Sequence record: PZ445437.1
Reading direction: 5' to 3' (one strand)
Source: a phage
DNA: 64,000 bases
In this document: piece by piece, positions 2,782 to 64,000 of the stretch
How the letters are laid out: each line of letters begins with the position of its first letter
Numbering within the stretch: the first letter of the stretch is position 1
The notes under the pieces: model-generated
The model's database searches: none
What the model saw: only the letters and a program-made list of their open reading frames with translations
Told to the model about the DNA's origin: nothing
Position numbers and translations under genes: made by a program

Positions 2782-3362
2782 TATTCACCACAGAATTCGT
2801 TGATATTTTCCCAGTTTAACTTATTCAAGTTTTTCTTGGGAACATTAAACACTTCAATACCTGCATTTCGCAGAATATCATCCCAGCCAGGTTTATTTTT
2901 ATCATATGTTTCGCAATAAACCAGCTTTTTAATACCAGATTGAGCTATCGCTTTTGCGCAATCTGGACAAGGAGAAAGTGTTACATACATAGTAGCACCT
3001 TCAATAGAAGAACCATTTCGTGCAGCAAACAAAATTGCATTTAGTTCAGCATGAATTTCATTTTTAGACGACCATTCAGAGTGAGCGCTACGGTGTTCTT
3101 TCGCCAAGACAAAGCGATCAGTTGAACCAAATGATACGCATTCAGGCTTATGGCCTTGGATGATAGTATGTTTAGGTTTATTCAGCAACCAACCTTGCTC
3201 AGCGGCATAATCACAACAGTTCACACCTCCTGCGGGTGAACCGTTATACCCAGTAGAAATAATACGTCCATTCTTTTCAATTACTGCTCCTACCTTCCAG
3301 GAGCAACATTTTGATTCTTGTGATACTAAATATGCAATTTGAAGTACTGTACTCGCTTTCAT
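2781..3362 (-). CDS. cd: dCMP deaminase (193 aa)
   Basis: HAE...PCPDC zinc-binding deaminase motifs; length equals T4 Cd. Confidence 0.9.
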   Translation of the reverse strand: MKASTVLQIAYLVSQESKCCSWKVGAVIEKNGRIISTGYNGSPAGGVNCCDYAAEQGWLLNKPKHTIIQGHKPECVSFGSTDRFVLAKEHRSAHSEWSSKNEIHAELNAILFAARNGSSIEGATMYVTLSPCPDCAKAIAQSGIKKLVYCETYDKNKPGWDDILRNAGIEVFNVPKKNLNKLNWENINEFCGE

Positions 3363-3697
3363 TTCATAATCACCAGATAAGCAGATTTAGCAGTTTCAAC
3401 ACGATAAATTTCATGACGAAGTTTAGTTATACTTTTAATAACAGAACTAATTATATTCTGTCCGTCTTTAAAGCGGTTTTTCTTATCAATAAAAATTGCG
3501 CCAACCATCTTTTTGTGAAGCTCAACTGGATACTTCGTCACAATAATAGCATCATATACAGAAGGATGAATACTATTTACTAGAGTGTCATTCATTAAAG
3601 TTATTCTAATGAACTGTGCTGTTTCAGAGTCAAGCGCTCTATGATCGCCAGTATCATTTTCAAGACAATTATCAATTATATCAGTTAAATTCATCAT
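3359..3697 (-). CDS. hypothetical protein (112 aa)
   Basis: ORF track; start/stop overlap with neighbours. Confidence 0.6.
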   Translation of the reverse strand: MMNLTDIIDNCLENDTGDHRALDSETAQFIRITLMNDTLVNSIHPSVYDAIIVTKYPVELHKKMVGAIFIDKKNRFKDGQNIISSVIKSITKLRHEIYRVETAKSAYLVIMK

Positions 3698-4029
3698 AGT
3701 ACGCCATACACCCTTTGTGCTTCAACTAATCCATCAAAATCCAGTTTAAGATGCGATATTTGATCGCCATCACCTGGATTCACAATTACTAATACTGAAC
3801 GAGGAGTTTCGGTAATAACACGAACCGATGTTTCAGGAAATCGTTCAGAAACCTTATTTACCAATTCCTGAGCAAATAGTTTAACTTTTTCTTGGAATTC
3901 TTTAACAGTAATTGGTTTTTCACTTAGCAGCATTTTGTTTTCCTCATTTGTTTGGTAGAGCCATAATATCACAACTCTACCGTAAAGTAAACTATTAAAT
4001 CGCTTTGAATTCCGCAGTTTGAGATTCAA
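3694..4029 (-). CDS. hypothetical protein (111 aa)
   Basis: ORF track. Confidence 0.55.
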   Translation of the reverse strand: MNLKLRNSKRFNSLLYGRVVILWLYQTNEENKMLLSEKPITVKEFQEKVKLFAQELVNKVSERFPETSVRVITETPRSVLVIVNPGDGDQISHLKLDFDGLVEAQRVYGVL

Positions 4030-4270
4030 AGCGAATGTCGCCTTTGATAACTAACTCAGCATCAAGACCGAATACGACAATGATATGCGCGGAACCTGGA
4101 TACAGCGTAATGGCAACAGAATCCACCTGGTCTGGAAGCAAAGTGTTTAATACATGAGTCACTTGAGCATGGATTCGAAGCTCGGCTGCGTTATCAAGCT
4201 TTTCAAACATATTATTAGCGATAATTTGACTAAACACTACTTCTACGATTTTAGAATAAGTCGGAAACAT
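3995..4270 (-). CDS. hypothetical protein (91 aa)
   Basis: ORF track. Confidence 0.55.
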   Translation of the reverse strand: MFPTYSKIVEVVFSQIIANNMFEKLDNAAELRIHAQVTHVLNTLLPDQVDSVAITLYPGSAHIIVVFGLDAELVIKGDIRFESQTAEFKAI

Positions 4271-4272
4271 AT

Positions 4273-4473
4273 TTACCTCACATAATTTTCTTCAAGCCAA
4301 TCAATAACATCCAAAGCGTTATCAAAAGTTGAACCATCTACTTTGTCTTCTGTTTCATAATCAAGAACATCTAAGCCTACTCTTCCGTCAACAATAGGCC
4401 ATAAACAAAATAGATATTTCTTTTCTTTTTCAATTTTATCACAAAGACGATAAATCTTTTCTATGTTATTCAT
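4273..4473 (-). CDS. hypothetical protein (66 aa)
   Basis: ORF track. Confidence 0.5.
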   Translation of the reverse strand: MNNIEKIYRLCDKIEKEKKYLFCLWPIVDGRVGLDVLDYETEDKVDGSTFDNALDVIDWLEENYVR

Positions 4474-4662
4474 AAGTTTTCCATGGTAAAGGCAGTTTAG
4501 TTTTCTTTACTGTTAGTTCAACATCAGGATTCTTTTCTCTCAATTTAAGACATTCCTCCCAAGCTCTGATTTCACTAGTGAATACACAAAATTGCCCATT
4601 ACTAGTACCGACTAAACCACTATTTACAATAATAATAGCCCAAGTTTCATGATGCCACGCCA

Positions 4663-4663
<1 letters not shown>
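4466..4663 (-). CDS. hypothetical protein (65 aa)
   Basis: ORF track. Confidence 0.5.
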
Positions 4664-5875
<1,212 letters not shown>

Positions 5876-5879
<4 letters not shown>

Positions 5880-6112
5880 TTATTTTTCTCAACTAATGAT
5901 TGAATATAATCATGCAGGTCTTTAGATGCTTTACCCCACTTATTTTGATATTCATTTTTGAGATTAGCACGTGATTGAGCTAATAAAACATCATTAGTTG
6001 GAGGTAAAGATTCTAACCGCTGAATCTGGCGTCCATAAATCATTGCAGCCATCTCGGATTCATAAATCAATCCTTTGAGATGTTCAAATTGATGCCATGA
6101 AATCATTTGCAT
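5876..6112 (-). CDS. hypothetical protein (78 aa)
   Basis: ORF track. Confidence 0.5.
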
Positions 6113-61802: not shown

Positions 61803-62165
61803 TTAAAAGAATTTAAACTTTTTCTTTGATCTTTTATTAAATGCATCTTGTAGTTGCATTGTAATACATTTTTCTACATGAGGAGCTAACTCAGCTTTTC
61901 TTTCTTGGTCAAGAACAGCAAAGTCCATTACAACCTTTCCATCAACCCAATCCAGTTTAGTTACATACACTATATGCGTAGAACCATCTTCTAGTTTAAT
62001 GACAATCTCCTGGATAACATTTTCCATAGCAGATTTAATTATCTTAAGAGACTCATTAAAAAGACGTTCTTTTCTTTCTTCTTCCCCCTCCGAAGAGGGG
62101 GATTCATCGATAATTTCTAGATCTAAATCTAAATCATCTTTATTCATTAAATTCTTCCATATCAC
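61803..62165 (-). CDS. 40: gp40-position acidic protein (120 aa)
   Basis: Position between 41 and uvsX. Confidence 0.55.
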   Translation of the reverse strand: MIWKNLMNKDDLDLDLEIIDESPSSEGEEERKERLFNESLKIIKSAMENVIQEIVIKLEDGSTHIVYVTKLDWVDGKVVMDFAVLDQERKAELAPHVEKCITMQLQDAFNKRSKKKFKFF

Positions 62166-63321
62166 TTAACTGTTCGAGGTCAGTTTCTAAATCAGCAGCT
62201 GATTTACTTTTACTTTCTGGAGATTTAAATTTTTCAACCTTTGAGTTAATCAATTCATCAACTTCAGCTTCAACAATTTCATTACTATCAATAGCACCTA
62301 ACTGATAAGCACGTTTAATAGCATCTCGGAATGGTTGATGCTTAAATAAAGGACCCCAGAATGTAGTGCAGTTGGTATCTTTTGCACGCCAAGATTTTTC
62401 TTCGCGAATCATCTCACCGGTTTCTTCATCAAGAAATTCACGGGCATACCAGCCATTTTTAGGTTTTACTACAAATCCTAATTCTAGAGCCATATCTAAC
62501 AATCCAGAATAAGGATCGATACCACCGTCAAATTTAACATCAATAAAGAATTTACTTTTTTCTTTAACGGTACGAGATTTTTCTACATTTAGAACAAATT
62601 GATACCCCTGAAGATCAGAACCATCTTTAATCTGGCGTTTACCGATAATGAATACAGTATCAGCCGAATACATTACGCCTGTACCACCTGTCATCACGGT
62701 TTTACTAAACATTTCAATTGTTTCAATTGTATGGTTAACCGCAACACATGGAATATTTTTAATGCTAAAATAAGGAGTAACAATACGGAATAATGACTTC
62801 AGTGATTTAGCACGAGTCATATCTGCCACAGATTTTTCATTCAAGGCGTCTTCCGTTTCTTTCTTAGAAGCCATATTACCAATTGAGTCGATGAATACAA
62901 TAACCTTTTCACCGCGCTCAATAGCTTCAAGCTGGTTCACCATATCAATTTTCAGCTGTTCAACTGACTGAATTGGCGTATGAATTACTCGTTCTGGGTC
63001 AACTCCCATGGATCGTAAATAAGCTGGAGTAATACCAAATTCACTATCATAGAATAGACAAACCGCGTCAGGATATTTGTTCAAATATGCCGCAACCATA
63101 GTCAAAGACATATTTGATTTAAAGTGTTTAGAAGGCCCTGCGAAAATAGTTAAACCAGACTGCATGCCGCCATCAATCGCACCAGAAATAGCAATATTAA
63201 GCATTGGGATTTTTGTACGGATTACATCCTTTTCATTAAAGAATTTAGATGTAGTCAGTTCAGCAGTCATTTTAGAAGTGGAAGCTTTAATCAAACGGGA
63301 TTTTAAATCTGCAATAGACAT
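62140..63321 (-). CDS. uvsX: UvsX RecA-like recombinase (393 aa)
   Basis: Walker A GPSKHFKS; sequence recognised as T4 UvsX. Confidence 0.95.
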   Translation of the reverse strand: MSIADLKSRLIKASTSKMTAELTTSKFFNEKDVIRTKIPMLNIAISGAIDGGMQSGLTIFAGPSKHFKSNMSLTMVAAYLNKYPDAVCLFYDSEFGITPAYLRSMGVDPERVIHTPIQSVEQLKIDMVNQLEAIERGEKVIVFIDSIGNMASKKETEDALNEKSVADMTRAKSLKSLFRIVTPYFSIKNIPCVAVNHTIETIEMFSKTVMTGGTGVMYSADTVFIIGKRQIKDGSDLQGYQFVLNVEKSRTVKEKSKFFIDVKFDGGIDPYSGLLDMALELGFVVKPKNGWYAREFLDEETGEMIREEKSWRAKDTNCTTFWGPLFKHQPFRDAIKRAYQLGAIDSNEIVEAEVDELINSKVEKFKSPESKSKSAADLETDLEQLSDMEEFNE

Positions 63322-63398
63322 TCATTTTTTCCATAGGCATCATTATATTTTCCTCACTGGTTAAAGATAGAGTAATTATAACACAATAAATTTAGGCA

Positions 63399-64000
63399 TT
63401 AATCAACTGCTATTGGATGAATAGCATTAAACTTATGAAATGCTTCTGATTTTTCTTTGCGCGAAACACACATGCGAAGAACCTTTAATGGCTCGTCTTC
63501 TTCACCCAACGATTTTCGTTTTTCAATATTAGAAGTTTTCCAACGAGCTTGCTCTGGAAACTCTATATTGATTTGCTCAAGCGCTCTATTATGTTTAGAA
63601 TTACTGCGAATTGAACTGCACCCGCCAGGAGCTTGTGCTTTTCCAGATACAACTAGATATTTGAACAAGGCCAAATGCGGATAACCTTGATTAATTAAAT
63701 TGAGAAATGCATACATATCTTCGCATAAATCAATTTTTCCATACCCAATTTGTTCTGTAGTAAGTTTTCCAAGGTCATACCATGTATTCGTGAATCCATA
63801 TGAATTTTCACGATAATTACCCCAAGATGAAGTAATTTTAAAAATAGGTAGACGAGCATGGCCATGATAATACCCACAATCCATGGCATCCTCAACATAT
63901 TGAATCAATTCATAGAACTGTTCACGAGTCAATTGATTGACTTTATCTACGCAACGACGATCATCTCTTTTTCGCATTGAACTCATACGAATAGTAGTAT
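63399..64000 (-). CDS. hypothetical protein, probably partial (frame open to right edge)
   Basis: ORF track 63399..63986, but no in-frame stop between 63986 and 64000; does not resemble T4 beta-glucosyltransferase as I recall it. Confidence 0.5.
   Translation of the reverse strand, partial: TTIRMSSMRKRDDRRCVDKVNQLTREQFYELIQYVEDAMDCGYYHGHARLPIFKITSSWGNYRENSYGFTNTWYDLGKLTTEQIGYGKIDLCEDMYAFLNLINQGYPHLALFKYLVVSGKAQAPGGCSSIRSNSKHNRALEQINIEFPEQARWKTSNIEKRKSLGEEDEPLKVLRMCVSRKEKSEAFHKFNAIHPIAVD

Follow-up and report, generated by a model that had tools for sequence, protein, structure and literature searches.

A probable T2/T6-type beta-glucosyl-HMC-alpha-glucosyltransferase gene, cut by the sequence end, beside uvsX in phage record PZ445437.1

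The reading frame next to uvsX

The window, meaning the whole stretch of 64,000 nucleotides of phage sequence record PZ445437.1 that was analysed, ends within a reading frame on the minus strand. This single frame (63399-64000) is closed by a TAA codon at 63399-63401 and stays open up to base 64000; its C-terminal end is ...LRMCVSRKEKSEAFHKFNAIHPIAVD. A sequence-only reading had described an ORF beside uvsX that contains YHGHARLP, had quoted its C-terminal end and had taken it to be probably truncated by the window edge. Both the motif and the quoted end were present in the minus-strand translation (last residues ...LKVLRMCVSRKEKSEAFHKFNAIHPIAVD), and the truncation was borne out, there being no stop codon up to 64000 and a protein of 280 aa in relatives. 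The start of the 195-aa ORF at 63986 is an internal methionine (M86); the four codons preceding the ATG at 63986-63984 (T-T-I-R) are all open as well, so the ORF is cut by the window. The identical DNA of AdolfPortmann (Bas44) runs on to encode a full protein of 280 aa, the window covering residues 82-280 with 100 % identity. Outside the window lie codons 1-81, among them the start codon and those of a DDD motif; codon 81 is represented by two bases only (63999-64000).

The window part of the gene differed from that of phage T6 by 13 synonymous and two non-synonymous codons, and from that of phage Solly by nine synonymous codons and one non-synonymous codon. By this comparison of sequences, the frame is under purifying selection. 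Because the differences were mostly synonymous and the protein matched PHROG 842, the frame was regarded as a real gene and not a chance ORF. Two plus-strand ORFs (63457-63684 and 63858-63980) run antisense to this conserved coding frame and were rejected as spurious.

The coordinates of the gene, its motifs and its neighbour are listed in Table 1. Downstream of uvsX, genes 40, 41, dmd, 61.4 and sp followed in the usual T4-like order. Four promoter-like sites were found in 62000-64000, compared with 7.9 in shuffled controls, and no terminator was detected in this interval. Neither tRNA genes nor Rfam families at the gathering threshold were found in the whole 64-kb window.

Table 1. Features of the uvsX-proximal end of the window
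Feature	Position	Strand	Remarks
Probable ba-gt (ggt) gene, 3' part (beta-glucosyl-HMC-alpha-glucosyltransferase, TAGT family)	63399..64000	-	Codons 82-280 and stop; identity to Bas44, PHROG 842
Internal Met86 codon, not the true start	63984..63986	-	True ATG 255 bases upstream of Met86, ~241 past the window edge
YHGHARLP, residues 125-132	63846..63869	-	Inside the family-conserved D-x-G-Y-x-H-G-G block (consensus of 73 homologues)
E174-D175	63717..63722	-	D175 invariant in the family; first residues of modelled helix 174-184
G206-G207 of the GGCS motif	63621..63626	-	G207 invariant, G206 at least 90 % conserved
Spacer of 77 bases, ba-gt stop to uvsX start codon	63322..63398	-	No terminator-like hairpin in scan
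uvsX (RecA-like recombinase), downstream neighbour	62140..63321	-	Landmark gene

Relatives and alleles

A megablast search with positions 63300-64000 (701 bases) as the query matched 522 of 50,697 phage records, 474 of them at a query coverage of at least 80 %. This end of the window matched teqskov and AdolfPortmann (Bas44), both Escherichia phages, with 100 % identity, T2 and RB18 with 99.4 %, and Solly and EH2 with 98.6 %. The matched gene is annotated as beta-glucosyl-HMC-alpha-glucosyltransferase (ba-gt, ggt) in teqskov, Bas44 and T2, where it adjoins uvsX, and the majority of the matches listed carried the same label (ba-gt, b-gt or ggt) at the same position. Both Bas44 and T2 have a gene of 843 bases with 280 codons. 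PHROG 842, the family of beta-glucosyl-HMC-alpha-glucosyltransferases, was matched both by the full-length Bas44 protein (E=2.1e-88) and by the window fragment (E=1.9e-49). The suggestion in the sequence-only reading that the locus might encode a different hmC-modifying transferase, as in some other T-even phages, was thus supported, the gene being of the T2/T6 ba-gt type with DNA 99.4-100 % identical to T2, teqskov and Bas44. Winkler and Rueger (Nucleic Acids Res 1993) are reported to have cloned the T2 and T6 genes and determined their sequences.

The DNA and protein were nearly identical to ba-gt of T2 and T6, which occupies the same place upstream of uvsX, and there was no substantial difference here beyond the allele and the restriction of the window to residues 82-280. 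In the window part, 197 of the 199 residues were shared with T2 (changes I226R and P251S), 197 of 199 with T6 (R106H and I226R) and 198 of 199 with Solly (I226R only). The alleles are therefore Ile226/Pro251 in the window, Arg226/Ser251 in T2 and Arg226/Pro251 in T6 and Solly. Ile226 was common to the window, teqskov and Bas44, whilst Ser251 was confined to T2 among the five alleles compared.

It is very improbable that the gene is a remnant or an inactive copy damaged within its N-terminal 81 codons. The 5' end does lie beyond the window, and in one T6 entry codon 10 is an amber codon; however, the 600 bases inside the window match, with 100 % identity, two phages in which the 280-aa gene is intact, and the mostly synonymous differences from T6 and Solly also argue against decay. 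We infer instead that the unseen 81 codons are intact and that the gene is active in the source phage.

Protein family and predicted fold

The full-length Bas44 protein matched PF20691 (TAGT, TET-associated glycosyltransferase) over residues 3-207 with 38.9 bits, passing the curated cutoff of 27.5, and P0001 scored 40.1 bits against the same family. PF20691 was its sole Pfam family. The 199-residue window fragment on its own gave no Pfam match because the TAGT model requires the N-terminal third, a part that the window lacks, and NCBIfam returned no match either for the full protein or for T4 beta-gt. Eight close relatives were found by a word-indexed search, most of them with PF20691. With a threshold of E<=1e-3, an exhaustive search yielded 359 representative clusters, of which 63 also passed E<=1e-10; the first of these counts indicates that the TAGT family is broad. 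Despite the family name, no TET/JBP dioxygenase was annotated in the flanking regions inspected. The hmC of T-even phages is made at the nucleotide level by the dCMP hydroxymethylase gp42.

Conservation was scored on an alignment of 73 family members. Residues D80, D175, G186 and G207 were invariant in these homologues, and I6, R11, R63, D79, D81, G206 and R212 were conserved in at least 90 % of them. The D79-D80-D81 triplet (within WMIDDDT), which lies just beyond the edge of the window, was found in Bas44, T2 and T6.

The predicted structure of the full-length protein (pLDDT 94.6) is a glycosyltransferase of the GT-A fold with one Rossmann-like domain for nucleotide-sugar binding, in which strand 74-78 leads into the DDD triplet, at the position that DxD occupies in GT-A enzymes. 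By analogy with such enzymes, DDD (79-81) would bind Mn2+/UDP-glucose. Several of the closest structural matches were inverting GT2-type enzymes. The GT2-like inverting GT-A enzymes of known structure (TarS/TarP, the K4CP chondroitin polymerase, BcsA, WrtF and AvpGT) shared 7-15 % identity with ba-gt and act on polysaccharides, teichoic acids or small molecules, and not on a sugar carried by DNA. With UDP-alpha-glucose as the donor, a beta linkage can arise only by an inverting mechanism, and D175 is a putative catalytic base by analogy with the GT2-type enzymes. A profile search of PDB sequences produced a chance match only (polycystin-2, E=0.99), so that no TAGT member with a solved structure was detectable by sequence.

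Family membership, the DDD, ED and GG motifs and the GT-A model place the protein in the TAGT family. We consider it very probable (about 0.93) that the frame represents the last 199 codons of a T2/T6-type beta-glucosyl-HMC-alpha-glucosyltransferase (ba-gt/ggt; TAGT, PF20691), a metal-dependent, inverting enzyme of the GT-A fold. This is a long-known enzyme and the usual product of the uvsX-adjacent gene in T4-like coliphages, and nothing in it is new; the main value of the identification is a correct annotation, with little beyond.

A C-terminal tail of ~70 residues extends past the end of the Pfam model at 207. Its last ~45 residues (KTSNIEKRKSLGEEDEPLKVLRMCVSRKEKSEAFHKFNAIHPIAVD; residues about 235-280, window 63399-63539) are charged, partly helical by prediction and modelled with the lowest confidence (pLDDT 76-92). 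For most of the distant homologues, the alignment ends at about 230-240, before this part, which could be a DNA- or partner-binding element specific to the T-even clade.

DNA modification and arrangement of the locus

The reaction of ba-gt, the beta-1,6 transfer of glucose from UDP-glucose onto alpha-glucosyl-hmC in DNA, is taken from the literature. After replication, the phage alpha-glucosyltransferase would place an alpha-glucose on 5-hydroxymethylcytosine in the phage DNA, to which ba-gt would then add a second glucose, beta-1,6 to the first, from host UDP-glucose to give gentiobiosyl-hmC. This bulkier base would be one of the layers that shield phage DNA from the nucleases and glycosylases of the host. 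The family PF20691/TAGT has been equated with the enzyme of T2 and T6 that converts alpha-glucosyl-hmC to 5-gentiobiosylmethylcytosine by glucosylation, and the T6 enzyme as modelled with AF3 adopts a GT-A fold and groups beside GT2 as its sister, whereas alpha-GT and beta-GT are both GT-B (PMC13216743). Gentiobiosyl-hmC, the product of the homologous ba-gt, makes up 72 % in T6 and 5 % in T2 (PMC6024577), and HPLC/MS of Solly, EH2, QOTSP and others revealed about one-third hmdC and two-thirds alpha-gentiobiosyl-hmdC (PMC13390438). The presence of ba-gt indicates a modification of the T2/T6 type (hmC, alpha-glucosyl-hmC and gentiobiosyl-hmC) and not of the T4 type (alpha- and beta-glucosyl-hmC). 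The T2/T6 type predicts how sensitive the phage would be to modification-dependent defences, for example GmrSD-type nucleases and Brig1-type glycosylases.

The partner gene, alpha-gt, lies between gene 47 and gene 55 in Bas44, about 12 kb past the position of the window end, and we assume that the source genome carries it. In a tblastn search of the 64-kb window with alpha-gt and T4 beta-gt, only chance-level matches were obtained.

With the enzymes of T2 (~5 % gentiobiosyl-hmC) and T6 (~72 %) almost identical, the sequences give no obvious clue to what governs how much second glucosylation takes place. Single-residue differences between alleles (226, 251) might tune the di-glucosylated fraction, which we regard as improbable; if they did, the hmC : glucosyl : gentiobiosyl ratio of the source phage could be out of the ordinary.

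A TAGT enzyme of another specificity, using another sugar or linkage or acting directly on hmC, would give the source phage a modification unlike that of T2 and T6. The breadth of the family (359 representative clusters) leaves room for this, and since homologues occur paired with alpha-GT, paired with beta-GT or alone (PMC13216743), specificities within it probably vary; the window allele also has I226 in place of the R226 of T2, T6 and Solly. Residue 226, however, is outside the conserved motifs, and the window part shares 197 of 199 residues with T2 and with T6 and 198 with Solly, in whose DNA gentiobiosyl-hmC has been measured. Another specificity is accordingly rated as very unlikely, and the T2/T6-type reaction is preferred.

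The T4 enzyme deserves separate comparison, as the sequence-only reading had placed beta-gt directly next to uvsX in T4 and had judged the present ORF to be unlike it. The first point was not quite right: in T4 (T4T 3001-6070), the direct neighbour of uvsX is segA, which encodes a GIY-YIG homing endonuclease, and beta-gt and then gene 42 come after segA. No segA gene is present in the window at 62140-64000, where ba-gt follows uvsX directly across the short spacer. The second point held. According to the literature, both T4 beta-gt and ba-gt use UDP-glucose as the donor and phage hmC DNA as the substrate and form a beta linkage, but the acceptor is hmC itself for the T4 enzyme and the glucose of alpha-glucosyl-hmC for ba-gt. 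The two genes are also syntenic; a TAGT gene is syntenic with T4 beta-gt in Tequatrovirus phages (PMC13390438).

This shared position, between uvsX/segA and gene 42 in T4, is all that speaks for a diverged orthologue of T4 beta-gt (GT-B, GT63) that would attach one beta-glucose to hmC itself. In BLASTP, the full-length Bas44 protein showed no similarity to T4 beta-gt (E=0.51), and nothing resembling an end-to-end alignment was obtained. T4 beta-gt matched PF09198 (325 bits) and a GT-B family, whereas PF09198 was not matched by the full-length ba-gt protein. The T4 enzyme is a two-domain GT-B protein (PDB 1JG7, cited in PMC13216743) as opposed to the single-domain GT-A model of ba-gt, and no T4 beta-gt structure was among the PDB matches listed for that model. 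Beta-glucosyl-hmdC was, moreover, absent by HPLC/MS in Tequatrovirus phages with a ba-gt gene (PMC13390438). An orthologue of T4 beta-gt is therefore hardly credible.

The segA gene at the uvsX junction of T4 and the known plasticity of the region (PMC6024577) might also point to mobile DNA, for example a homing endonuclease gene, with the His-rich YHGHARLP as a nuclease motif, but this can be set aside, given that no nuclease family was found in Pfam or PHROGs, that the model has a GT-A fold and that H126-G127 falls within a conserved block of the glycosyltransferase family.

A ba-gt gene was found beside uvsX in about 520 phage records. The arrangement of T4, with segA and beta-gt, is rare among its relatives, and ba-gt is the rule. 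The alpha-GT and beta-GT pair of T4 was present in only 6 of 753 genomes, most phages combining alpha-GT or beta-GT with a TAGT (PMC13216743). The common assumption that beta-gt at the uvsX locus is the norm is thereby corrected, T4 being the exception.

The interval between the polymerase gene and uvsX is highly plastic (PMC6024577). Over the last 25 kb of the window (39001-64000), the best records were only 96-97 % identical. For uvsX, the best of the matches listed was 303Ecol101PP (99.4 %), whereas the ba-gt end was 100 % identical to teqskov and Bas44; these differing best relatives are the usual mosaicism of Tequatrovirus.

Gene 42 (dCMP hydroxymethylase) adjoins ba-gt in Bas44, T2, T6 and Solly and would lie past the edge of the window. 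The start codon of ba-gt overlaps the stop codon of gene 42 by four bases in Bas44 (4939-4942), and the T2 gene likewise overlaps gene 42, which suggests translational coupling of the genes for hmC synthesis and hmC hypermodification.

In the deposited genome of phage T6 (MH550421.1), codon 10 of ggt (3138-3980, minus strand) is TAG instead of the CAA (Gln) found in Bas44 and T2, and ggt has consequently been annotated from Met20 as a protein of 261 aa. Such a protein would be missing R11, which is nearly invariant, as well as the beta-strand that opens the GT-A core. The amber codon also accounts for the 53-base gap that is annotated between gene 42 and ggt in T6 in place of the overlap. It may be a stock-specific mutation or a sequencing error, or be overcome by read-through or restart, T6 DNA having ~72 % gentiobiosyl-hmC. 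At the level of the deposited sequence, MH550421 shows that apparent defects of this kind occur in ba-gt entries.
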